Source: Naegleria gruberi (Eukaryota). Taken from it: DNA of 64,000 bases. The translations under genes were made by a program, and so were the position numbers. Where the stretch lies: assembly GCA_000004985.1 (NCBI GenBank), contig GG738863.1. One strand, 5' to 3'. Positions 5,918-35,442 of the stretch are shown in pieces. The notes beneath the pieces are model-generated. The model searched no databases. It had not been told where the DNA came from and saw only the letters and a program-made list of their open reading frames with translations. The number at the start of each line of letters is the position of its first letter. Position 1 is the first letter of the stretch.

Positions 5918-6492
5918 ATGCTAAGATCAAACGATATTCGAAAATTAATTTCAAAACCCTCATTGAAAACTTCTCCATTTGTTGTGAGAGCAATTCTTTC
6001 AACTAATTCTGTTAGAAACCTTCAAACTAAGCTTCCTGTTCATACTGGCTTCTTTGATGATGTTGCTGGAACTTATAAAACATTGCAAAATCCTCCAAAC
6101 TTTGCAAAACAATTCAAATTAAGTATGAAACCATTCGAATTCAGACAAGGACAACCTTTCTGGTAAGTTTTTAAAAAACAACACTAATTATCAACACTCT
6201 TAAAAGGTTCTTTAACTTTGCAGGTGTTCTAATCACATCCTTCTCTATTGCCTTTGGTTTCATGTATTTAATGTACTTTATTGTTTGGTACTTTTATTCT
6301 AATCCTTTCGTTCAATCTCCATTCAATTTGTATAATCCTCATCCATTCTTGGAGATTAGAAATGGAAAAGATGCAGCCAAAACCTATGATCCATTGAGTA
6401 AATTCTATGTTTACTGGAGTCCAGCAAGAGGTGAAGATAAAAAGACCATGTTTTACAGAGAATTAAATTTGGCCAAGGATCATAGACTTTAA
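5918..6492 (+). CDS. Small single-pass membrane protein with a presequence-like N-terminus, possibly a mitochondrial inner-membrane subunit. Two exons.
   Basis: Model: ATG 5918; exon 1 5918..6162; intron 6163..6206 (44 nt, GTAAGT...AAAAG); exon 2 6207..6492. The join is in phase: TG + G gives W, then FFNFAGVLITSFSIAFGFMYLMYFIVWYF (a transmembrane helix), then a soluble tail. The N-terminus is rich in basic and hydroxylated residues and poor in acidic ones. Confidence 0.45.
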
Positions 6493-6653
6493 ATTATTAA
6501 AGAATTTATGATGATTACACAATTTCAGTCCAAAGTATTTGGGAATCAAGTTAGTTAGAGGTCGAGAAAAATTACATTGTAAACAAATTCAATAAAAACA
6601 AGATTAAAAAAATTTTATTTCAGTGTAGCTGATCCCAATAGGATCATGAGGTA

Positions 6654-9600
6654 TTATCTTGAATTAAGAGAACATGAGTAATATTTTCTGTGTGCTTTAC
6701 CAACAAGTAGTGATAATAGACTTTGAATTTCATGCCAATTATCAATGATTTTAGGATTATAGGATTTAACTAAAATAATATTTAAAGCCTTAATAAAGCC
6801 TCTATGATTTAAATTGAGAATTGAATTGTGTCTATCCCAAAAAGTGTCATGGGGACGAAGCTTACAGGATGCTCCTGTAAGATTCGTGAATTTAGTTAAG
6901 AAATATCTTCTAAAACATTCGGTTTCTTCACAGTAGTATATGAAATGTTCCAAATCCACTTCACATTCACAGTTATCACAATAAACTTGACGAAATTGTC
7001 TAATATGTGAGTCGGTCATGTTTCTCCAAATTGACAATTTGGTTTCAGTGTCAAATCTTTGATCCATATATTTCAAATTGATATTAGTGAGGGACTGACT
7101 TTGGTTAAAAGGTAAGTCAGATTTATCCTCAACAATATCTAAATATTCTTTTCTCTGGATATCTTTGATGTATTTTCTATAGTCAAAGATGATTGTTTTC
7201 TTATTAGTATTAATTAAAATCTTTTGGTTTTGGGATAATAGTTTGGTAATATCAATCATATTTTGTCCTTGTGCACCTTCTTTTGCTAATTTATCAACTA
7301 TAATATTCTCTGGATCTTCATGCCCTTTCACTTTAACTAGATGGATATTTAAATGTTTATCCTTAATGGTACCAAAGAATTCTTCTTGAAATCCTTGAAA
7401 GTCTCCTCTGTAACTCTTTTTTAAAACTTCAATAGCAACTTGACTATCAGTATGTACATTAGCATTGGAATGATTTGGCAGCATTTTGATTGCTGTTAAT
7501 ATAGCCATGATTTCAGCCACGTTATTGGAATATTCTTCATGAATCTTGAAGGAATATTTGAAACTTCTATTTTCTGAATTATATATATTAATTCCAAATC
7601 CCACTTGGTTTTCAATTTTTGATCCATCTGTGTGAATATTAAATGAATGACCCTCCATTTGATCCAAATTAATATCATTGTCAATATCATTACATTCCTT
7701 CAATTCGATATTATATCGTTTCATAGTTTGTAGAATACTATCAAAGATATTGCTAATTCTCTTCTTTTTACCAGCATGTTTGATCCCATCTTTAATTGCC
7801 TCTCTTACTAGAGGGTTTCTACTATTTGTTAAATATAAAATAGAGTTAATATTAATTCTTTGAATGAAATCATTACAGTTAGGAATACCCAATCCTCCAT
7901 ATTCAATAGGTAAATGGAACCAATGAGTGTGACTTCTTAAATCTAAATGAGCTCTTCTTCTAATACATTTCCTAATAGCAGTATCTATTTTATCACCTAA
8001 AGCTGCTGGTATGATATTACATCTAGATAAATGTGTGAATAAACTGATACATTTAGCATGTATCACTTTTCCAATATTTGGAATTTCCATTCTCATAATA
8101 GGCATATATTTCAGTGATAGTTGAAATTTAGCAATCTTATTCATAATGTCTTCTTTTACCATTTTATCATCCCATGGATAGTGACCAAGAACTCGTACAT
8201 TTTCTTCAAGTGGTATTTTGGTATCATTAATTTTTGGTTTCATTTTCTTAATTTTCTTAGTAGGGTTCGGTTTCTGTGTTGCAACTGATTTGGATGGATT
8301 GATCTTTAGTGATAATTTCCCAAGCCATCTATTTAGGTCTTTTAATCTTGAATTATAATTGCAATTTTTAGTCGCTGTTAAATTTAGGTCATCAGCAAAA
8401 CATAGAATTCCAATATCATCTGCTTTGAGTTTTTTAGGTTTTACGGGAATATCCCACTTGTCTATACATTTATCAATAATTAATTGAGTAATACAATCGT
8501 AAACCAGGGGAGCTAATGGACAACCTTGTGGGATGCCCCTGGTTTTGTGAATGGGTCTAGATAATGAGTTTCCTATCTCTAAGCTTAATAAATGGTCTTT
8601 GTACGAGTTGAGGATAAATTCAATTAATTCATTAGGGAATTTACAATGATGTAGAGCTAATTCAATTACCTTCAGTTCAACAGAATCATAAGCACCTTCT
8701 ATATCCAAGTTTACAATTAATAGAGGGTCTTTTTCTCTATTGGCTTTATGTGCTAAAGCTGATAATACTATTCCATGATTCATTGTACTTCTGTGTGAGA
8801 TAAATGCTTGTTGTCTAATATTTATGTTCCTACTAGCCCATCTTCTTAATTTAAAAGCAATAACATTGAATAATAATCGGTAATAAATTGGTAAGATGGT
8901 TATTGGGCGAATATCATTCAATTTCTTAACTTCTCGCTTAGGTACTAATTTTACCCACCCTTGTTTCCATTCTAAGGGAATATTTCTTGTTTGGAGACAT
9001 TCATTAAATTTTTCTACTAACAGCTTTAAATTATCATCTGATAGTTTCTTAATAATATTAAATGATATAAAATCTAGTCCAGGTGTGTTAGATTTCATTC
9101 TTTGAATAGCTTTCTTAACAGAATTCATAGTTATTTTGATTTTTGATGGGCCCTTTGAAATAGTAGATGGGGCACAATTAAATTGAATTGAATCGGTTTT
9201 AGATTGGAACTTTTGCTCAAAGTAGTCAATCAATTCCTCTTCTTCAAAATCAACTTGTTTCCAGTTAATTGACTTCTCCTTAATATGTCTATCAAATTGA
9301 TATATTAATGATGAATCGTATCGATTAAATGATTCAGAAATCTTTCTCTTAATTTCCTCTGCACATCTATGATAAAGGTCTTTAATTTCAGATCTAACTC
9401 TTTCTATTTGGTCTGTATCATTGTTCTCTGAATTAATGAGATCATTCAATTCCTCTTCTTTCGACTTAATCTCTTGTCTTAATTCTGATTCATTAGTTTT
9501 AATTCGAATTCTATCATTCTTTCTTAAATTTTCAATAATAAAGGATTTAATTTTGTTATCTAATTCATTAAAGCTATCAGGAACTTCTCTGTTAATAGAT

Positions 9601-10397
9601 TCAATAAATTTTTGAATCTTTGTTGGACTAATATATGGTCTCCATGTATCATTAGTCTCTAATTCAATATCAATATAGAATGGTTGATGATCATTCTTAG
9701 TTATTGATGGTAAAATCTTCTTATTTCTAATAATAATATTATTTGAAACGAATATATGATCAGGGTGAGTTTTAGTTGTACCATCTCTTGTTTTTCTAAT
9801 GTAGGTGTATTCATCAGGAGCTATAGATTCATAAAAATTGAAAGTATCAAAGAATTCACACCACATTCTATCTCTCATTGAAGTGGGATTAATGGTATTT
9901 ATATTCGGATCTCCCGATATAATGAAATATTCTCCTTGATGTGCACTTATATACTCTATCATGGTACTTAGTATTTTATCATCATATGATTCACTCTCCT
10001 CATCATTTCTAACACTTATATAGACTGTAAAGATATTAATTGGTTTTCCTCTTGTTTCAAACTTTGTTAATTGAAGTAATCCTGGAATAAGATTGGTATT
10101 ACATAACAATCTTTTCCTTCGGTTGTTAATAAAATGTAGCAATGCAGTGCCTTTACAAGCTTTTCTGGTTCCCATTAATGAATTAAAAAAGAAATGTCCT
10201 CTTCCTGATTCGAAAGCCCTTTGTTGATCTTCTAATTTGTTAATGTGAGTTTCGGTAATGCTTATAATTTGAATATTATGTTGGTGACAAATTCCCTTAA
10301 TAGCATGAGTTAGGATCTCTTTAGTTTCTGTTTTAATAAGACCATTCACATTAAAACATCCCACTCGGAAATTGCATTTTGGATTAATCATTGGCAT
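6654..10397 (-). CDS. LINE ORF2 polyprotein: N-terminal apurinic-like endonuclease, reverse transcriptase, RNase H and a C-terminal Cys/His motif
   Basis: 1247 aa. Endonuclease/exonuclease/phosphatase-like N-terminus (CFNVNGL...SITETHI...GDPNIN). RT motifs PITILPIYYRLLFNVIA, LDIEGAYDSV, GIPQGCPLAPLVY and LCFADDLNL. RNase H motifs NIHTDGSK...AEIMAILTAI...HTDSQVAI. Then CDNCECEVDLEHFIYYCEETECF. No internal stops. Confidence 0.85.
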   Translation of the reverse strand: MPMINPKCNFRVGCFNVNGLIKTETKEILTHAIKGICHQHNIQIISITETHINKLEDQQRAFESGRGHFFFNSLMGTRKACKGTALLHFINNRRKRLLCNTNLIPGLLQLTKFETRGKPINIFTVYISVRNDEESESYDDKILSTMIEYISAHQGEYFIISGDPNINTINPTSMRDRMWCEFFDTFNFYESIAPDEYTYIRKTRDGTTKTHPDHIFVSNNIIIRNKKILPSITKNDHQPFYIDIELETNDTWRPYISPTKIQKFIESINREVPDSFNELDNKIKSFIIENLRKNDRIRIKTNESELRQEIKSKEEELNDLINSENNDTDQIERVRSEIKDLYHRCAEEIKRKISESFNRYDSSLIYQFDRHIKEKSINWKQVDFEEEELIDYFEQKFQSKTDSIQFNCAPSTISKGPSKIKITMNSVKKAIQRMKSNTPGLDFISFNIIKKLSDDNLKLLVEKFNECLQTRNIPLEWKQGWVKLVPKREVKKLNDIRPITILPIYYRLLFNVIAFKLRRWASRNINIRQQAFISHRSTMNHGIVLSALAHKANREKDPLLIVNLDIEGAYDSVELKVIELALHHCKFPNELIEFILNSYKDHLLSLEIGNSLSRPIHKTRGIPQGCPLAPLVYDCITQLIIDKCIDKWDIPVKPKKLKADDIGILCFADDLNLTATKNCNYNSRLKDLNRWLGKLSLKINPSKSVATQKPNPTKKIKKMKPKINDTKIPLEENVRVLGHYPWDDKMVKEDIMNKIAKFQLSLKYMPIMRMEIPNIGKVIHAKCISLFTHLSRCNIIPAALGDKIDTAIRKCIRRRAHLDLRSHTHWFHLPIEYGGLGIPNCNDFIQRININSILYLTNSRNPLVREAIKDGIKHAGKKKRISNIFDSILQTMKRYNIELKECNDIDNDINLDQMEGHSFNIHTDGSKIENQVGFGINIYNSENRSFKYSFKIHEEYSNNVAEIMAILTAIKMLPNHSNANVHTDSQVAIEVLKKSYRGDFQGFQEEFFGTIKDKHLNIHLVKVKGHEDPENIIVDKLAKEGAQGQNMIDITKLLSQNQKILINTNKKTIIFDYRKYIKDIQRKEYLDIVEDKSDLPFNQSQSLTNINLKYMDQRFDTETKLSIWRNMTDSHIRQFRQVYCDNCECEVDLEHFIYYCEETECFRRYFLTKFTNLTGASCKLRPHDTFWDRHNSILNLNHRGFIKALNIILVKSYNPKIIDNWHEIQSLLSLLVGKAHRKYYSCSLNSR

Positions 10398-11367
10398 GAT
10401 ATTTTAGTTGTGGTTCATCCTCATCATCTATATCATCATGCTTTCTTCTTACTTGAGGATTTGGAGCCATTCTAACATCTCTAATTTCTTCATCTTCTAC
10501 CATCTTCTCTAACATGTTATCAATATGATTTCCAATCAGTTCTAATTCTTGGTTATCAATAATATTATTTGGTTGGTTTTGTAACCATATTGGAATTTTA
10601 TCCATTAAATTTTTGAATTCTTTTTCTGTGTTTTTAACAACTACATTAATTTCATTGAATTGTTCTTGTAATTTAGTATAATTCATTTCCAATAAATCAA
10701 GTCTTTCCATAATTCTATCTAATTTGCTGTCATTATTAATTGAGGTACTATCAGGTTGTTTGTTCACTTTATATTTCTTTGTAAGATATTCAGCAGTGGA
10801 TACAAATTGAATAAAGTGCATGATACCAATAGGATCTCTCTTTGGAAAAACCACTTTAGTAAATCTATAAACTTCATCGTCAGATTGTAATCTAATATTA
10901 ATAATATAATTATTATTTAATAGTTTACTAATTTTAATATTTTCTTTTTTAATAGTAATATTAGATCTTTGTTCAATTGTTTTAATTGATTCAGACACTT
11001 GTTCCTCTGTGAAGTTCTTACTCATAACAATAGATACATCTAAGGAGCTTTCATTAATAATTTCTTCAATTTTACGATAGGTTTCAAACTTATTTTGAAT
11101 TAAATAATTAATTTTAGTGTTTGTTAGGAGAGAAACTCTCAACTTGTATTGTGAAATAGATTTGTTTGAGTCATAGTTTAAACTAACATTAATTTGATCA
11201 ATATCAATATCATTAGAATTAATAATTAATCTATATTTTTCCATAAATTCTTTTTGATTCTTGGTATAGTATTTTACAGCATGTTCAGTAGCATTAAAAT
11301 TCATAGGGGAAGCAAAGTATTTAGCAGGTGCTTCCTTAATAACTTCTTGATTAGTAAGTATTTTCAT
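10384..11367 (-). CDS. LINE ORF1 (coiled-coil nucleic-acid chaperone-type ORF1p)
   Basis: 327 aa with a true ATG at 11367-11365 and an in-frame TAA about 40 nt upstream. The C-terminal part has a predicted coiled coil (LDRIMERLDLLEMNYTKLQEQFNEINVVVKNTEKEF). It terminates inside the ORF2 start (...HAND*). Confidence 0.65.
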   Translation of the reverse strand: MKILTNQEVIKEAPAKYFASPMNFNATEHAVKYYTKNQKEFMEKYRLIINSNDIDIDQINVSLNYDSNKSISQYKLRVSLLTNTKINYLIQNKFETYRKIEEIINESSLDVSIVMSKNFTEEQVSESIKTIEQRSNITIKKENIKISKLLNNNYIINIRLQSDDEVYRFTKVVFPKRDPIGIMHFIQFVSTAEYLTKKYKVNKQPDSTSINNDSKLDRIMERLDLLEMNYTKLQEQFNEINVVVKNTEKEFKNLMDKIPIWLQNQPNNIIDNQELELIGNHIDNMLEKMVEDEEIRDVRMAPNPQVRRKHDDIDDEDEPQLKYHAND

Positions 11368-21874: not shown

Positions 21875-24439
21875 ATGTACAATACCCAACAACAATCTTC
21901 CCCGCAACAACCAAGACTTTCATCAAAGGTTGAATTGCACATTTCATGCAGAGGATTGAAGAATGTGAGTTGTTTATGTGAAGATTTGCAATTTAATAAT
22001 TATTCGTTAATTTGTGATGATTTTGTTGATTTTATTAAATGATCATCTAATGATGATTTTATTAAATAAGATGGATTTACTTTCAAAGTCAGATCCAAAG
22101 GTTTTAGTTTATGCAGGATTTCCTCCGAATAATCCACAATACGTAAGTAAATAATTAGAAATTTCTAGAAATATTATTGGAAAGGCTTGGAAATTATTGG
22201 GCGAAACTGAATGCATCAAGGATAATTTAAATCCAAACTTTTCAACTACTTTTACAGTTGAATATTGTTTTGAAGAACTTCAACACTTGAAATTCTGTGT
22301 CTATGATATTGATAATAATACTGCCACATTATCGGATGATGATTTTATTGGAGAGACAACTACAACACTAGGTGAGTATTGAAATCTTAAGAGTTTAGAT
22401 ACCAATTTATTGAATTAAAATACAGGTGAAATTTGTGGAGCTAAAGGACAAAAATTAATTAAACATCTCTATGCCAAGGGTTCAAAGGTTTCAAGAGGTA
22501 CCATCATTGTAACTGCCGAGGAAGTTAATTCAAATGCCACTGATGATGTGGAAATTGCCTTGGCAGGTGTTACACTTCCAAAGGTATGTGTTAAATAATT
22601 TCACAGAAACTTATTCTACAATTTATTATTTAATCTTACAATAGATGGATTTTTTTGGAAAGGCAGATCCAGTACGTAATTAGTTATTAGCAGATTTATC
22701 TAACATTTGTCAAGTTTTATGTTGTACAAAAAGCATCTGAAAGTGGTCAATTCCTTTCAGTTTATCAATCTGAAACCATCATGAATAATTTAAATCCAAT
22801 TTGGAAGCCAATGCGAATTTCTTGTGCCAAATTGTGTAATGGAGATTATCATAGAAGTTTGAAAATTTCTGTATACGATTGGAATAAGCACTCTGCTCCA
22901 GATTTTATCGGAGAGGTTGAAACTAATTTGGATGCTCTTCTTAAGGCTAGTGTTTCTCTTAAACTACAAAATCCAGCAAAGAAAAAGGGAAATCATGGCG
23001 ATCTTATTGTCAAGTCCTCCAAGATTACTAAAAATCCAACCTTCTTGGAATTTTTGGCAGGTGGAATGAAAATGAACATGTTGGTTGCAGTTGACTTTAC
23101 TGCTTCAAATGGTCAACCAGAATTACCTCAATCTTTGCACTACAATAGACAAGGACAAATGAACCAATACGAACAAGCTATTAGATCTGTTGGACAAATT
23201 ATTTCTGACTATGATAGCGACAAATTGTTCCCATCTTTTGGTTATGGAGGATATTTACCAAATGGTATTACATCACACTGCTTTGCTTTGAATGGTAATC
23301 CACAAAAACCAGAATGTTTTCAAGTTGACGGAATTCTTCAAAGTTATAGACAAGCACTGTATACCGTAAAACTTTCAGGACCAACTCATTTTGCTCAAAT
23401 TATCAAAACAGCCTGTCAATATGCTTCTGTTCCAATAAGTCAATCAAACCAAGAATATTTTGTCTTGCTCATTTGTACTGATGGTATGATTAATGATATG
23501 CAGGAAACTATTGATCAAATAATTGAAGGATCAGGACTCCCACTTTCAATTATTATTGTTGGTGTTGGTGCAGCTGATTTCAGCTCTATGGAAACACTGG
23601 ATGGCGATAATGCTGCCCTCAGATCTGGCCGTACTGGAAGAACAGCTCTTCGTGATATTGTCCAATTTGTACCATTTAACAAATTTGCATCAATGCCATT
23701 TACTGCTCTCAGTAAGGAAGTTCTTGCTGAAATTCCAACCCAAGTAACTCAATTCATGAAAATGAAAAATTTAATGCCAAACCAAAGAGTAGTTATTCAG
23801 GAATATGTTCCACCTGAACCAAGCACTCCATCCACCACAACTACTCAAATGTATCCAAGCAATGATCCACCAAGAGAAAGAAGTATGTCAGAAAGTTTCA
23901 ATCCAAATACTTCCAATTCCAATCTTAATTCCATTCCAAACCAAGTTCCACAACAAGGTATTCCACAACAACAAGTTCCACCAACTTATGGAGTTCCTCC
24001 TCAACAAGGTGGTTATCCACAACAGGGTTATCCTCAACAACCAACTGGTCAACCTCAACAATATCCTCAACAACAAGGTGGTTATCCAATGCAACCTCAA
24101 CAATTTGGTGGATATCCTCAACAGCCTGTTGGTGGACAACCTCAACAATTTGGTCAACAAGTTCCACCTCAACAATATGGCCAAATCCCTCCTCAACAAT
24201 ACAGTCAAGTCCCTCCACAACAAGGTTACCCACAACAAGGTGGATATCCACAACAGGGTTATCCTCAACAACCAACTGGTCAACCTCAACAATTTGGTCA
24301 ACAAGTCCCTCCACAACAATATGGCCAAATCCCTCCTCAACAATACAGTCAAGTCCCTCCACAACAAGGCTATCCTCAACAAGTCCCACGTAATCCTCAA
24401 CAACCTGAAAATCCAACCATCCCTCAATACAAAATTTAA
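21875..24439 (+). CDS. Copine (two C2 domains plus a vWA domain) with a long P/Q/G/Y-rich C-terminal tail. Six exons.
   Basis: Exons: 21875..21964 (MYNTQQQ...[12 protein letters not shown]), 22071..22142 ([14 protein letters not shown]...), 22185..22371 ([20 protein letters not shown]...FCVYDIDN...), 22426..22583 (...[10 protein letters not shown]...), 22645..22671 (MDFFGKADP) and 22715..24439 ([13 protein letters not shown]...NNLNPIWKP...; vWA region [10 protein letters not shown]...LICTDG...[10 protein letters not shown]). Introns are 42-106 nt with GTGAGT/GTAAGT/GTATGT/GTACGT donors, and all junctions are in phase. Each junction matches the conserved copine order (SKSDP, SWAELGRTE-like, NNLNPxW). 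Confidence 0.8.
24137..24424 (+). repeat. Tandem duplication of a 144-nt (48-aa) coding unit in the copine tail, embedded in shorter GYPQQ-type repeats
   Basis: Copy 1 is 24137..24280 and copy 2 starts at 24281. Both encode [34 protein letters not shown](G)... with only a few substitutions. The antisense ORFs 23888..24427 and 23925..24416 are by-products of this repeat. Confidence 0.7.
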
Positions 24440-25047
24440 TTTATTGTACTTTATTTACCAATTCCTTTCATTTCTATCGAATACATATGTCAATTTGAAC
24501 CAATTTATGTACTGCAATAAAATCAGCTTTGATTCAAACATAGAAATAAAGAAAGGTTTCACCTGTCTGTTGATTACTAGTGATACAATGCACCAAATAT
24601 GATGATTGCTTCAAGCCGCTCCAATATTTTTTTGATGAACTTTTAAATCTCCATTTGAACTTGTTCAATGTAATTTTCATTAAGGAGTGCCAAGCTATTT
24701 ATTCATGTATAATACCTCAACTAAGTGTAAGACAAATCACTAGTAGGATATTGTTTTTCTTGAATACTATTTTGATAATATTATCATCATATAATTAATC
24801 TCAAAATTTGTCTTGTTTCCATATAGGGCAATAAATACTCTTAGTGGAGTGGTTTGATTAATTATACATCCTAAAAATTATAAAATCTCCTATTAAGGAC
24901 GTTTTTTCAGTTAATTTCTATCTTCACTTTGCGCAACAAGCACCATTATTTAATAACCCTCTCAAATAAATTAGATCTATAAATTCAACCACCACTCGCA
25001 GAGTATTTGTGTTCAATGATTACGGAAAAGTTTTTAAACAAACGAAG

Positions 25048-27006
25048 ATGAAGGTAACGCCCGCAGGAAGTAATCATTTTAATAATAACACTCAATCATC
25101 ATCATCCTTTCTCAGTCGACTCTCTTATATGAGAGCCTTTGAGGAAGCAATTCCAAACCAAACAGCAGGAGGGCTGTTCAACACAGGAAGAGGATATTGC
25201 ATCGATTCAATATGTTCCATCAAGGCTTTTGTTATTATGTTTTTAGTTTTGACAATATTCATCACTTGCGTTGTGATTTGGATTATTATCATGGTTTTAA
25301 TATCATCACAGGTGGAAATAACAATGGCAATCGCCTCAATAATTGTGTGGTGTACATTTGTTGTATCGATCACAATCTTCTCTATACTATTAGCAGTGGG
25401 GGTACACTTTTTGATAAAAAAGCCACTATTTGTACTAACAAGACAACTTGGTACCATGAAATCACTCCGATTTGATGCAATCCAAAAACTTTCCTCAATT
25501 CTCTATGAATTCATACCACTCTATGTGGCCTTTAATGAATTGAATAATTTAATGAAGGATATAAGGCCCTTCATTCCAGAATCCATTACAAGACAATCTG
25601 ATGAAGAAGTACTGGACTTGGATGAAGAAGAACGGAGAAACAAGCAAATGATCGAAATGAGAAAGAAATTAATGCCAATTGCTAAGAAAATTGCAGCTCA
25701 ACAGAAACCAATTACAAAGGTAATAACGGTACAGAAATCAAAATCGAGAGTTGATTTGAACACTCTCAAACCAAACATTAATGAGCAAAAGACAAACGAA
25801 CAAAAACCAGTTGAATCAATAACTCCACAACAAAAACCACAACAACAAACGCCAATGGCAAGTTCATTATTGGATCCAAACTTGGAGGAGAGGCCAAACT
25901 CTGCAGTGGACAAATTAAGGAACGCAGTTTCCAAGGCAGTTGCCAAAGCAACAAAACCAAGAATCGAAGGTTCTCTCTCTTTGCAAATCAATGTCAACCT
26001 TCATGATAATATGTCTGAAGTTAGTAGTGTCTTTAATTCTTCAAGAGAGTTTGGCTCCAACTTGGGAAGTGGATTTTCACCTGAATTTAAAAAAAATTTT
26101 GGGTTAGGGTTGACTTCACACATTACAACAATAATTATTATTCAATTTAGAAACTTTGACGGAAAGAGTTATCCAAATACTGCAGATTTATTGTCAGTAT
26201 TTACATTGCTTTTCCAAAAAGTCCAAAGCGTTAGCAGGCAATTCAGAGGAAGAACGGCTATCATCACTCCAAAGGTTCTCATGATCAGTTTTGAAGTTGG
26301 TAAAAACGCGGAAAGAAATGCCTTACTATGTGCTCTTCAATTAGAAAAACAAATGCAATCAGTCAATACACAGCTCACAGAACAGGTAAATCTTCCCCCA
26401 GTAGAATTTGGAATTGGTGTTTCGAGGTCTGAATGTTTGGTGGGTAATATTGGTACGGCTGCTGTGAGATATTCTGCATTGATTGGAGCTTGTTCAAGCA
26501 ATGCATTGCGATTAGCTGCTCTGTGTGCATACTTTGGTACTTCAATTCTTACCGATGAGTCGCTAACGCTTGCTCTTAACATTGGTTTCATTACACGTGC
26601 TGTCCACTTTATGCACAAGAAATCAATCCTTGATGAAAAATTGTGCCTCGATGATGATGATGTGAATAAGCAAACAATTTTTCAATTGTTGGGCGAGAGA
26701 AAGATTTTGGATGATGAATGGTTTTACGAAATTCAACAACAAGAACAAAATAACTTGTATAAGGAATTCGATCAAGCATTTGAATTATTGAGAGGAGATG
26801 TTAACATGACCTTGTTGAAAGAAATATGTGGAGTGTTTGAAGCCTATTCAAGTAAGCATCCAACTGATAAGGTTGTTTCATTGCTTTATGCTCAATTATC
26901 AAAATATTTACAATATGATGCTGAAGAAGTTGTGGAAGCAATAAGAGCCTTTAGTTTAGAAAAGACCGATATCCCACTTCACACTGATCCATCATTCATT
27001 CTTTAA
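25048..27006 (+). CDS. Membrane-anchored protein with a degenerate class III adenylyl/guanylyl cyclase-like domain (probable pseudo-cyclase)
   Basis: The tracked start at 25009 is GTG; the first ATG is at 25048. There are two N-terminal TM helices (FVIMFLVLTIFITCVVIWIIIMVLI; IASIIVWCTFVVSITIFSILLAVGV). Residues from about 400 to 560 (TTIIIIQFRNFDG...LMISFEVGKN...VEFGIGVSRSECLVGNIGTAAVRYSALIGACSSNALRLAALCAYFGTSILTDES) follow the CYCc fold pattern (FADIVGFT...GD.Y...RIGIH.G.V.GVIG..R..Y.V.G..VN.A.R.ES...I.VS), but both metal-binding Asp positions are substituted. Confidence 0.45.
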   Translation: MKVTPAGSNHFNNNTQSSSSFLSRLSYMRAFEEAIPNQTAGGLFNTGRGYCIDSICSIKAFVIMFLVLTIFITCVVIWIIIMVLISSQVEITMAIASIIVWCTFVVSITIFSILLAVGVHFLIKKPLFVLTRQLGTMKSLRFDAIQKLSSILYEFIPLYVAFNELNNLMKDIRPFIPESITRQSDEEVLDLDEEERRNKQMIEMRKKLMPIAKKIAAQQKPITKVITVQKSKSRVDLNTLKPNINEQKTNEQKPVESITPQQKPQQQTPMASSLLDPNLEERPNSAVDKLRNAVSKAVAKATKPRIEGSLSLQINVNLHDNMSEVSSVFNSSREFGSNLGSGFSPEFKKNFGLGLTSHITTIIIIQFRNFDGKSYPNTADLLSVFTLLFQKVQSVSRQFRGRTAIITPKVLMISFEVGKNAERNALLCALQLEKQMQSVNTQLTEQVNLPPVEFGIGVSRSECLVGNIGTAAVRYSALIGACSSNALRLAALCAYFGTSILTDESLTLALNIGFITRAVHFMHKKSILDEKLCLDDDDVNKQTIFQLLGERKILDDEWFYEIQQQEQNNLYKEFDQAFELLRGDVNMTLLKEICGVFEAYSSKHPTDKVVSLLYAQLSKYLQYDAEEVVEAIRAFSLEKTDIPLHTDPSFIL

Positions 27007-33132: not shown

Positions 33133-35442
33133 ATGTTGCCATCATCAGATAGTAACACATCAACAGCTACTACTGCGCAAAATGGTGTGAGTAGTGATGG
33201 TGATTGTTGTTATTATTCAAATAATGTTGGATCATTTGGAGAAATGTATTACCGATTGTTAAAAAGGTTTCGGGATGAAGAAATGGATGGCAAATATGAA
33301 AAGGATCATAACATTTTGATTACAGCTGATTCTTTATTGCATGCTTTTCATTATAGTTACAAATCGATATTGGAGTCTATTGAAGTGCAAATATTATTTC
33401 CAAAATGTAAACATTTATTTACCAAGTTATTTAAAAGTATGAAGGAAACTTTGATTAAACATAAATTTTCGGACTTTGCTAATCCTTCTCCTCACTCCCT
33501 GTTGAATGGATTTGAGTTGGAACCAAGACCTATTGGTCTTATAGAGCAAGGATTATATGATTTGGATTTTTTCATAACACTTTCCACATCTCTCATTCAT
33601 GGAAAGGTTGAGGATTCATATTTTATGCAGAATAGACATAATGTACATTATTTATTTGAATTAATTCATAGAAGATGCGAACTTGGAAATGATTTCAGTT
33701 CATCATGCTGTTTATTTACAATTTTCGGAGAGAAGAGGTTTTTGGAATTTAGACTCTATCAACCAAATTGGTTTTACATTAGGGATTACATGAATAATTA
33801 CTTTAAATTATTGAGTTGGTGTAATAATACATTTATGGACATTACAAACATTCAACAATTTACACTCATTTTGTTGGTGTGGCTTTTAGTTGAAGAATCT
33901 AAAACTCTTGGTTGTGAATATTCTCAAATTGAACATTGCTACAAGAATATGATTGGAATCTCAGATTCTGCCAATTGTGATGATATCACTACTACTTTGA
34001 GAGAATATTTCAATATGACTGAATCTGGTACGGAAAAGATTGCAGAAAAGCTTTACTACACTCTTACTCTTCCTGAAAATGAAAAGGCCATAAGAGAAAT
34101 TCAGCAATTTGTAATTAAGAAGAATATTGGGCTGAATCAAATTTCTAATGCCAATTTAAAATCACCAAAAGAAGGAGTTGGTCACAAGGATGAATTTACA
34201 TTTTGCTTTTTTGGAAGAAAGTTCACTTTGGATTCATTCATATTCCATAATGTTACATTTGACAGACTTAAAGATGAAGAAAATATGAGATATCTTCCTA
34301 GAGTTATTCCAACAATTTTAGATGTTGGATACACATTTTTAGATTCTCCTGTTGCTGAGGAAATTTTAAAGAACACTGATCCATATCATGACATTGTGCT
34401 TGACAAGTTGAATGAACTCAAAACCAGTATTAATGAGTACAATTCCCATCCAAGCATTCATAATATATGGCTTGATACTTTGAAAGGGTTATCGACTATT
34501 TCACCATTGTTCCAAAAGGTGGAAAAGTATACCGCCAAAGTGTTAATAACCCAATTTTCAAGCTTTTCTCATCTCAAATATGACTCTTCACTATTTGCAA
34601 AGCAGCACATTGAAACAGATATTGAGCTTATGGTAAATAAGGAAGTATTTGATATTGATACCGAAGCATCAGAATATGTGGATATTGGATTTCTTGTTGA
34701 GGGAAGCACCACTTTCTTCACAAAATTTGTTGCATTAGTAACTTTTGTCAGAGATTTACTTCAAAATGATGTTCAATTTAGCTCAATGCCCATCAGCTCA
34801 GAATCTGTGAAATTCTATAACAATTTCATCTCAACCCTGTCAGTGCTAGCTGAAATTAATAGGAAACAAACTGAGACTGGAGAAAAGTTGACTGAACAAG
34901 AAACGTCGTTTTTATCCAACATGATATTTGCAAAGAAGGATCCAAAACAATTCAAAACACAAACATTCAAACAAGTGTTGGGTACTACCTCTCAAAACTA
35001 TTCTGTCAGTGGCTGGTATCCTAACTTGTTTTTCAAAAGAGATGATGCAGGAAGATTCAAACCAATAGTGATTGACATTCACAGATATCCAGATGTTGAT
35101 AATGGTGTAATCTTGTGGGAGGCAGTTGGTCCCATTCATCTATTTGAAATGTCTCTAAAGGATAAAAAGTTCTTTGGACCAATGTTCTCTCAATTCGAAT
35201 TCATAACACCATACACCACCAAATTGAATAATGCAACATGGAAGAGTAAGCTCCAACACCCAAATCTTGAATATAACGAGTGGATGAAAATGTTGAGTAC
35301 TGAAATTTGTTTAGGAAAGAACTTTATTGGATACAGTCATTTGGATCACTTTACATGTGCTGAGTATACTACTGGCTCTCCACCTTCTTCAGGGTCTTCA
35401 TCCTCTCCAAACTCTCCCAGCACGCCCAATGTTGGTGAATAA
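33133..35442 (+). CDS. Hypothetical 769-aa protein (no family assigned) with a Ser/Pro-rich C-terminus
   Basis: Long uninterrupted ORF with a true ATG at 33133. It has ordinary globular composition, several Cys/His-rich stretches and a C-terminal SPPSSGSSSSPNSPSTP tail. I cannot match a known domain by eye. Confidence 0.5.
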   Translation: MLPSSDSNTSTATTAQNGVSSDGDCCYYSNNVGSFGEMYYRLLKRFRDEEMDGKYEKDHNILITADSLLHAFHYSYKSILESIEVQILFPKCKHLFTKLFKSMKETLIKHKFSDFANPSPHSLLNGFELEPRPIGLIEQGLYDLDFFITLSTSLIHGKVEDSYFMQNRHNVHYLFELIHRRCELGNDFSSSCCLFTIFGEKRFLEFRLYQPNWFYIRDYMNNYFKLLSWCNNTFMDITNIQQFTLILLVWLLVEESKTLGCEYSQIEHCYKNMIGISDSANCDDITTTLREYFNMTESGTEKIAEKLYYTLTLPENEKAIREIQQFVIKKNIGLNQISNANLKSPKEGVGHKDEFTFCFFGRKFTLDSFIFHNVTFDRLKDEENMRYLPRVIPTILDVGYTFLDSPVAEEILKNTDPYHDIVLDKLNELKTSINEYNSHPSIHNIWLDTLKGLSTISPLFQKVEKYTAKVLITQFSSFSHLKYDSSLFAKQHIETDIELMVNKEVFDIDTEASEYVDIGFLVEGSTTFFTKFVALVTFVRDLLQNDVQFSSMPISSESVKFYNNFISTLSVLAEINRKQTETGEKLTEQETSFLSNMIFAKKDPKQFKTQTFKQVLGTTSQNYSVSGWYPNLFFKRDDAGRFKPIVIDIHRYPDVDNGVILWEAVGPIHLFEMSLKDKKFFGPMFSQFEFITPYTTKLNNATWKSKLQHPNLEYNEWMKMLSTEICLGKNFIGYSHLDHFTCAEYTTGSPPSSGSSSSPNSPSTPNVGE

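Follow-up and report, generated by a model that had tools for sequence, protein, structure and literature searches.

A single-exon gene of Naegleria gruberi encodes a membrane-anchored protein in which a class III cyclase fold has been retained, while five of the six canonical catalytic positions have been replaced, so that the protein is very probably non-catalytic. The gene (652 codons, plus strand) lies at positions 25048-27006 of a 64,000-nucleotide stretch of contig GG738863.1 (assembly GCA_000004985.1), which is referred to in full as the window. An initial annotation of this open reading frame (ORF) had proposed a membrane-anchored class III cyclase-like protein without catalytic Asp residues, i.e., a candidate pseudo-cyclase, and the case has become stronger, as even the sole canonical residue kept by the window protein, Arg488, is a Lys in two of its orthologues. 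On present evidence, its most likely function is that of a non-catalytic, dimeric, membrane-tethered regulatory or scaffold module, the partners of which are uncertain.

A divergent class III cyclase fold

The cyclase-homology domain (CHD) was delimited by phmmer, profile, AlphaFold2 (AF2), and Foldseek analyses as follows.

26098..26697 (+), degenerate class III CHD, residues 351-550

The domain includes an invariant L353-G-L355 motif, which corresponds to the canonical 'l.lgGe', and a G466-N-I-G469 hairpin. In a phmmer search against PDB sequences, residues 360-489 matched Cya2 (2w01) with E = 1.6e-6, and a profile (A3) made from a 43-sequence family alignment, two canonical cyclases among them, matched CyaB with E = 8.7e-29 and Cya2 with E = 5e-26 across the whole domain. 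An AF2 model of residues 345-652, built on the same 43-sequence alignment, reached a mean predicted local distance difference test score (pLDDT) of 88.1 and a predicted template modeling score of 0.87, and it displays the characteristic β-α-β-β-α-β arrangement of the cyclase fold; with Foldseek, it gave E = 1.3e-12 and target-normalized template modeling scores of 0.80-0.83 to Cya2. All conclusions about the fold use this domain model, as a full-length model from an 8-sequence alignment had a pLDDT of 46.5 and was unusable. The best structural and sequence matches, namely Cya2, CyaB (3r5g), and CyaC (1wc1), share only 16-20 % identity with the window domain. Both profile and fold also match PDB 6yii, which is described as a "Class III adenylyl cyclase-like ATP-binding protein". 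Further, a profile search of 1.84 billion representatives returned 2005 matches at E <= 1e-3, canonical cyclases among them.

Pfam Guanylate_cyc (PF00211), on the other hand, gave no match at E <= 10 in the window protein or in seven orthologue domains, and scanning with Pfam and NCBIfam likewise revealed no cyclase or HAMP match in the protein or the orthologue domains. This is literally the outcome that the initial annotation had named as fatal to its proposal; the PDB-sequence, profile, and fold matches nevertheless decisively outweigh the Pfam null and place cyclase homology well beyond chance. Two relatives, P0011 and P0014, do pass the Pfam cyclase threshold. All sequence strings quoted in the initial annotation are present in the ORF, but the assignment of the fold to the C-terminal 160 residues has to be abandoned: the fold spans residues 351-550 and is followed by a conserved tail of ~100 residues.

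Replacement of the catalytic residues

To read the catalytic positions, the best 150 of the 2005 profile matches were aligned to one hidden Markov model (HMM), with the register anchored on the canonical motifs 'D.RGFT', 'K..GD', and 'T..GD.VN.A.R.E'. The canonical set of residues and its split between two monomers were taken from a eukaryotic guanylate cyclase (Winger et al. 2008; PMC2576301), in which, as in class III dimers generally, one subunit supplies two Asp residues to the site and the other supplies the base-specifying residues, the Asn, and the Arg. In this HMM register, the six positions of the window protein are:

26143..26145 (+), Q366, position of metal-binding Asp 1; invariant in the orthologue group
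26260..26262 (+), I405, base-specifying Lys/Glu position in the β2-β3 loop; invariant in the orthologue group
26272..26274 (+), K409, position of metal-binding Asp 2 (the canonical 'GD' reads P408-K409); invariant in the orthologue group
26476..26478 (+), A477, second base-specifying position (canonical Asp/Thr/Cys, before helix α4); Ser in one orthologue
26497..26499 (+), S484, ribose-orienting Asn position in helix α4; invariant, with an Asn at +1 that is Thr in one orthologue
26509..26511 (+), R488, transition-state Arg position in helix α4; the only canonical residue kept, Lys in 2/7

Neither the two Asp residues, nor the base-specifying pair, nor the Asn/Arg pair is therefore intact, and both Gln366 and Lys409 are invariant in all seven sequences of the orthologue group. 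The initial annotation had correctly denied an Asp at either metal site, as well as the conservation of the substrate-specifying positions (here Ile405 and Ala477). It had also placed the first metal site properly, at Gln366, but it had read the second as E416/V417 in 'LMISFEVGKN', which is seven residues too far downstream of Lys409 in 'TPKVLM'. Two other elements of canonical active sites were less informative: the β4 position of the triphosphate-positioning Arg is a Gly in the window protein, but it is Gly too in 21 of the 36 canonical controls, and the alignment is unreliable in the β7-β8 loop, which carries the triphosphate-positioning Lys.

Purifying selection on the degenerate domain

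Ratios of nonsynonymous to synonymous substitution rates (dN/dS) were calculated by the Nei-Gojobori method between the N. fowleri and N. lovaniensis orthologues. The whole gene gave 0.088, and the regional values were:

Cyclase domain, paralogue pair A: 0.044
Cyclase domain, paralogue pair B: 0.027
Tail: 0.056
Linker: 0.075
HAMP-like module: 0.115
Transmembrane (TM) region: 0.119
N-terminus: 0.179

With a dS of ~1.0, these values are approximate, although their regional ranking is robust. The CHD is the most constrained region of the protein; it is under strong purifying selection and is not decaying.

Architecture outside the cyclase domain

The remainder of the protein was divided into the following segments.

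25048..25218 (+), N-terminal, putatively cytosolic segment, residues 1-57 (alignment A1; low pLDDT)
25219..25302 (+), TM helix 1, residues 58-85 (hydropathy; AF2 helix 50-86, pLDDT 71-80)
25303..25323 (+), outer loop of 7 residues, SSQVEIT (86-92), without an extracellular sensor domain (hydropathy, alignment)
25324..25416 (+), TM helix 2, residues 93-123 (hydropathy, AF2)
25417..25590 (+), HAMP-like juxtamembrane module, residues 124-181 (hhalign; motif comparison with P0123, a Willaertia magna cyclase)
25591..26097 (+), low-complexity K/S/E/N/Q-rich linker, residues 182-350, 169 residues (alignment, AF2, composition)
26713..26730 (+), DEWFYE motif, D556-E561 (family signature 'DEW(M/L)YE(L)'; E, W, and Y invariant in alignment A4)
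26719..26946 (+), five-helix tetratricopeptide repeat (TPR)-like tail, residues 558-633 (AF2 helices, pLDDT 87-98)

Residues 1-57 are variable in alignment A1 except for a motif abutting the first TM helix, T46-G-R-x-x-C-x-D-x-x-C-S57, the two Cys residues of which might serve, e.g., as lipidation sites. The two N-terminal TM helices, already recognized in the initial annotation, are hydrophobic segments at ~58-85 and 93-123. They are joined by a loop of 7 residues, compared with ~330 residues in the full-length members of the family described below.

HAMP domains occupy ~50 residues immediately behind the last TM helix and consist of two amphipathic helices, the first with a Pro close to its start and the second opening with a Glu. 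Directly after TM helix 2 comes K-K-P126-L, with Glu154 further on, and the juxtamembrane module ends in an invariant F175-I-P-E178; comparison with P0123 equates this motif with the beginning of the canonical 'F.kYvP.e.v' transducer element of cyclases. When the family profile was compared by hhalign with the HAMP domains of bacterial HAMP-cyclases, it gave a probability of 82 % and E = 1.1e-5 over 49 columns. AF2 gives two helices in this segment, with low confidence.

The linker at residues 182-350 is poorly conserved and predicted to be disordered, with conservation confined to a first helix at ~191-217. It separates two halves of the transducer element, namely FIPE and the L353-G-L355 motif, that are contiguous in P0123. 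A flexible insert of this length, set between HAMP-like module and cyclase fold, speaks against a continuing need for rigid allosteric coupling to catalysis.

At the junction of the cyclase fold and the tail stands the DEWFYE motif, and the tail itself carries a conserved 'P.D' motif (P605 and D607). The tail gave weak profile matches to designed pentatricopeptide repeat proteins, and homologous tails are present in two canonical cyclases, namely P0123 and a bacterial CHASE2 cyclase, P0162.

A heterolobosean family of degenerate receptor cyclases

The DEW motif is not confined to the orthologues of the window protein, as it recurs in 109 non-orthologous representatives among the best 150 of the 2005 profile matches. 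Most of the best non-orthologous matches are proteins of ~800 residues, which consist of a TM helix, an ectodomain of ~330 residues, a second TM helix, a juxtamembrane segment, and FxPE, and which continue with a shorter low-complexity insert, 'lGL', the cyclase fold, DEW(M/L)YE(L), and the helical tail. One of the ectodomains (P0017) has a sub-threshold dCache_1 match (E = 0.0046). We defined the family by (i) (S/A/T)F(I/L/V)P(E/D) at the end of the HAMP-like segment, (ii) 'l.(l/m)GL' before β1, (iii) DEW(M/L/F)YE between the cyclase fold and a helical tail with 'P.D', and (iv) a large extracellular domain between the two TM helices. The window protein has F175-I-P-E178 followed by L353-G-L355, as well as DEWFYE and the 'P.D' of the tail; it and its orthologues lack the large ectodomain and make up a short-form subfamily. 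The window gene is thus an ectodomain-less short form of a large heterolobosean family of degenerate receptor-cyclase derivatives, and not an isolated oddity. A search with the tail profile (A4) returned only P0008 and P0161, two N. gruberi paralogues, among the matches listed, and those listed for the A3 profile were mostly bacterial cyclases. All 20 named members that were looked up belong to N. gruberi, N. fowleri, N. lovaniensis, or Willaertia magna, and more distant members come from metagenomes and one MMETSP transcriptome.

Loss of the catalytic set extends across the family. Among the DEW members of the same best 150 matches that cover all six positions (n = 54), the maximum was four canonical residues of six, and 49 retained two or fewer, whereas 11 of the 18 controls without the DEW motif kept all six. 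Among the DEW members examined, both Asp residues occur together in only two, and the Asn together with the Arg in none, so that the family shows no division into C1-like and C2-like halves that would complement each other.

Canonical heterolobosean receptor-type class III cyclases, from the same lineage, are exemplified by P0123 (KAL9641629.1) of Willaertia magna. P0123 resembles the window protein in its N-terminal TM helix, second TM helix, juxtamembrane helices, 'F.kYvP' and 'l.lG' motifs, cyclase fold, and helical tail. Unlike the window protein, it has all six catalytic residues, an ectodomain of ~330 residues, an uninterrupted transducer element ('FMKYVPVEIV...FELGVSEKRIAIFFSD'), and no DEWxYE motif; the window protein has instead one residue of six, the 7-residue loop, the 169-residue insert, and DEWxYE. 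In the HAMP- and CHASE2-linked class III adenylyl cyclases of bacteria, two TM helices, a HAMP domain, and a cyclase domain follow one another, as do the TM helices, the HAMP-like module, and the CHD of the window protein, and CHASE2 cyclases such as P0162 also have a homologous TPR-like tail. These bacterial proteins are catalytically active, however, and none of their D, D, K/E, T/D, N, and R residues has been replaced. After this tail, P0123 and P0162 end very much alike ('IDFENWDGVYVA' and 'IDWENWDGCWHF', respectively), which suggests a bacterial-type origin of the heterolobosean receptor cyclases.

In the simplest history, the ancestor would have been a competent heterolobosean receptor cyclase composed of a TM helix, an ectodomain, a second TM helix, a HAMP-like module, a transducer element, a cyclase domain, and a helical tail. 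Changes common to the family would then have been the loss of catalytic residues, the splitting of the transducer by a disordered insert, and the gain of DEWxYE, and the subfamily of the window gene would later have lost its ectodomain.

Degenerate cyclase-homology domains as such are already known: mammalian adenylyl cyclases and soluble guanylyl cyclases have them at their second sites, and bacterial cyclase-like binding proteins are further examples. The apparent novelty lies in this particular family, in its architecture, DEWxYE signature, and size, and in its confinement, to date, to Heterolobosea; our literature search on Naegleria and heterolobosean pseudo-cyclases found no publication that notes the degeneracy, and nothing relevant on the 6yii protein. 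Its implication for the much-cited number of Naegleria cyclases also appears to be new. A Naegleria pangenome paper counts "at least 81" cyclases and takes them as evidence of rich cyclic-nucleotide sensing (PMC9928731). A more speculative reading, which is less likely than not, is that Heterolobosea possess a large, lineage-specific clade of receptor pseudo-cyclases, comprising both receptors with dCache-like ectodomains and short forms, all with a degenerate cyclase fold, DEWxYE, and a helical tail, such that a large share of the cyclases credited to Naegleria may make no cyclic nucleotide and may signal instead through DEWxYE and the tail. If many of them are catalytically dead, as all sampled members of the DEW family seem to be, gene counts overstate the capacity of Naegleria for cAMP or cGMP production, and there would be a sizeable receptor class with an output other than cyclic nucleotides. 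The family could also provide a natural system in which to follow the change from receptor enzyme to pseudo-enzyme, through residue loss, uncoupling of the transducer, and acquisition of a new motif.

Proposed function and alternatives

In the regulatory or scaffold module that we favor, the two-helix hairpin would tether the protein to the membrane, presumably with both ends in the cytosol. Class III cyclase domains obligatorily form dimers. The cyclase fold and the HAMP-like module of the window protein would probably dimerize as well, and the dimer, with its conserved surface, DEWxYE, and the helical tail, would act as a membrane-localized interaction or regulatory module rather than as a source of cAMP or cGMP.

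Several points weigh against this proposal: (i) the dead status of the domain is deduced from its sequence; (ii) dimerization is itself a deduction, and the DEWxYE motif and the tail have no known partner; (iii) the HAMP assignment is only moderately supported, given a probability of 82 %, a template of 4 sequences, and no match in a Pfam HAMP scan of the window protein; and (iv) the invariance of the pseudo-active-site residues within the subfamily could mean that the pocket still binds something, beyond a structural role.

Other known systems offer partial parallels. In the degenerate C1/C2 halves of mammalian adenylyl cyclases and α/β halves of soluble guanylyl cyclases, too, a cyclase fold lacks some of the catalytic residues and works through dimerization, but the losses are complementary and leave one active site, whereas the window protein has lost both sets. 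The P. aeruginosa 6yii protein, the mammalian isoform AC3-AT (PMC11971047), and degenerate GGDEF receptors such as LapD and FimX are precedents for the reuse of this fold in binding or regulation without catalysis; they differ in belonging to unrelated lineages and architectures, none of which combines a TM hairpin, a HAMP-like module, a linker, a CHD, DEWxYE, and the tail.

A role as a C1/C2-type complementing subunit was considered and rejected, as neither half-set is retained and no complementary C2-like pattern is seen in the family. With both the Asp set and the complementary set lost, the window subunit cannot contribute to any working site of a head-to-tail cyclase dimer, whether in a homodimer or in a heterodimer, and pairing with an active paralogue would consequently silence that paralogue. 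Of the dimerization-partner role suggested in the initial annotation, complementation thus falls away, and silencing of an active partner is all that could remain.

Such silencing is the basis of a different reading, in which the dead domain heterodimerizes with competent paralogues on the same membrane and lowers cAMP or cGMP production or sequesters active cyclases. The sharing of the active site between monomers (PMC2576301), the absence of both residue sets from the window protein, the existence of competent relatives of the same layout in Heterolobosea (P0123), and the many cyclases encoded by Naegleria all speak for it, and there is a mammalian precedent in AC3-AT, a truncated, inactive isoform that binds AC3 and reduces cAMP synthesis (PMC11971047). 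The degenerate family is, however, very large, and most of its members have ectodomains of their own, which is more in keeping with autonomous receptors than with inhibitors. Moreover, no specific partner has been identified, and no cyclase gene adjoins the window gene: a tblastn search of the 64-kb window for a competent paralogue or partner returned only the gene itself, and the ten largest neighboring ORFs are unrelated. We therefore regard this attenuator role as rather unlikely, although the apparent loss of rigid coupling would fit it as well as it fits the non-catalytic module.

Ligand binding without turnover is a feature of c-di-GMP-binding degenerate GGDEF domains and of the forskolin site in mammalian cyclases. 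By analogy, the degenerate pocket at the dimer interface might bind a nucleotide or another small molecule without turning it over, and the protein might act as a receptor. Consistent with this, the pocket positions Q366, R368, N369, I405, K409, R460, E462, and S484 are invariant across Naegleria species, the CHD has the lowest dN/dS in the protein, and the ATP-binding 6yii protein matches both profile and fold. Members of the wider family, though, differ freely at these positions, which implies no common ligand, and the phosphate- and metal-binding residues are gone; we consider a ligand sensor improbable.

Nucleotidyl cyclase activity through unconventional residues, or a new catalytic activity on the same fold, is more doubtful by far. 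In its favor, the non-canonical polar residues that now occupy the former active site are strongly conserved, but two-metal catalysis needs two Asp residues (PMC2576301), where the window protein has Gln and Lys, and neither the base-recognition pair nor the ribose-orienting Asn has been kept. Finally, the truncated public annotation and the failure of Pfam to find a domain might suggest a decaying relic or a mis-annotated, functionless ORF, but this is effectively refuted by dN/dS values of 0.03-0.09, and it is further contradicted by the intact 652-codon ORF and by the presence of orthologues in at least three Naegleria species, with two further paralogues in N. gruberi.

Gene model, orthologues, and public annotation

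The gene model on which these analyses were based is:

25048..27006 (+), complete coding sequence, 652 residues plus stop (upstream in-frame stop; orthologue alignment from Met1; extends the deposited model by 136 N-terminal residues)

The ORF is intact and consists of a single exon, with its ATG at 25048, its stop codon at 27004-27006, and an in-frame TAA upstream at 24967-24969. Six homologues align with it end to end, from an M(K/R)VTP start to the C-terminus: N. fowleri and N. lovaniensis each contribute a tandem pair of paralogues, and the other two are environmental sequences. Because these orthologues align from Met1 to the C-terminus, the full 652-residue ORF is taken to be the true gene model. 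The deposited N. gruberi "predicted protein" has 516 residues, is 100 % identical to part of the ORF, and begins at the internal Met137; it lacks the first 136 residues (window 25048-25455), and with them the N-terminus and both TM helices. The two other close paralogues in N. gruberi (P0008 and P0161; 71 % and 75 % identity) lie on other scaffolds and are annotated solely as C-terminal fragments of ~220 residues each. All three public N. gruberi models thus look truncated and should be corrected. UniProt had already flagged the domain, as its automatic name for the orthologues is "Guanylate cyclase domain-containing protein".

In N. fowleri (L001 10001-14124) and N. lovaniensis (L003 4001-8105), the two tandem paralogues are flanked by a protein kinase gene and a formin gene. 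The window copy sits between a copine gene and a leucine-rich repeat/coiled-coil gene, so synteny with these two species is not conserved. Paralogue B of N. lovaniensis (P0007, L003 6433-8105) is annotated as a 458-residue model without the TM region; just upstream, there is homology to residues 4-164 of the N. fowleri paralogue in another frame (6433-6876 in frame 1, as against 6837-6908 in frame 3), a break that may reflect a frameshift, a short intron, or a fault in the assembly.

Neighboring genes in the window

The genes around the window gene are typical of eukaryotes and include copine, TCF25, INCENP, a HECT ligase, and an ARID protein. The copine gene (22781-24439, plus strand; Copine E = 2e-73) begins within a C2 domain, of which just the C-terminal part is present, and an additional exon upstream is therefore likely; the gene ends in a Q/P/G/Y-rich tandem-repeat region of ~210 residues. 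On the minus strand, a 1247-residue ORF at 6654-10397, with a reverse transcriptase (RVT_1, E = 3e-28) and RNase H, is adjoined and overlapped by a 327-residue ORF at 10384-11367, and the two together look like a retrotransposon. A 769-residue protein encoded at 33133-35442 (plus strand) has a strong match to DUF3160 (E = 1e-58), which is a mainly bacterial family, and its gene may be a candidate for horizontal transfer.

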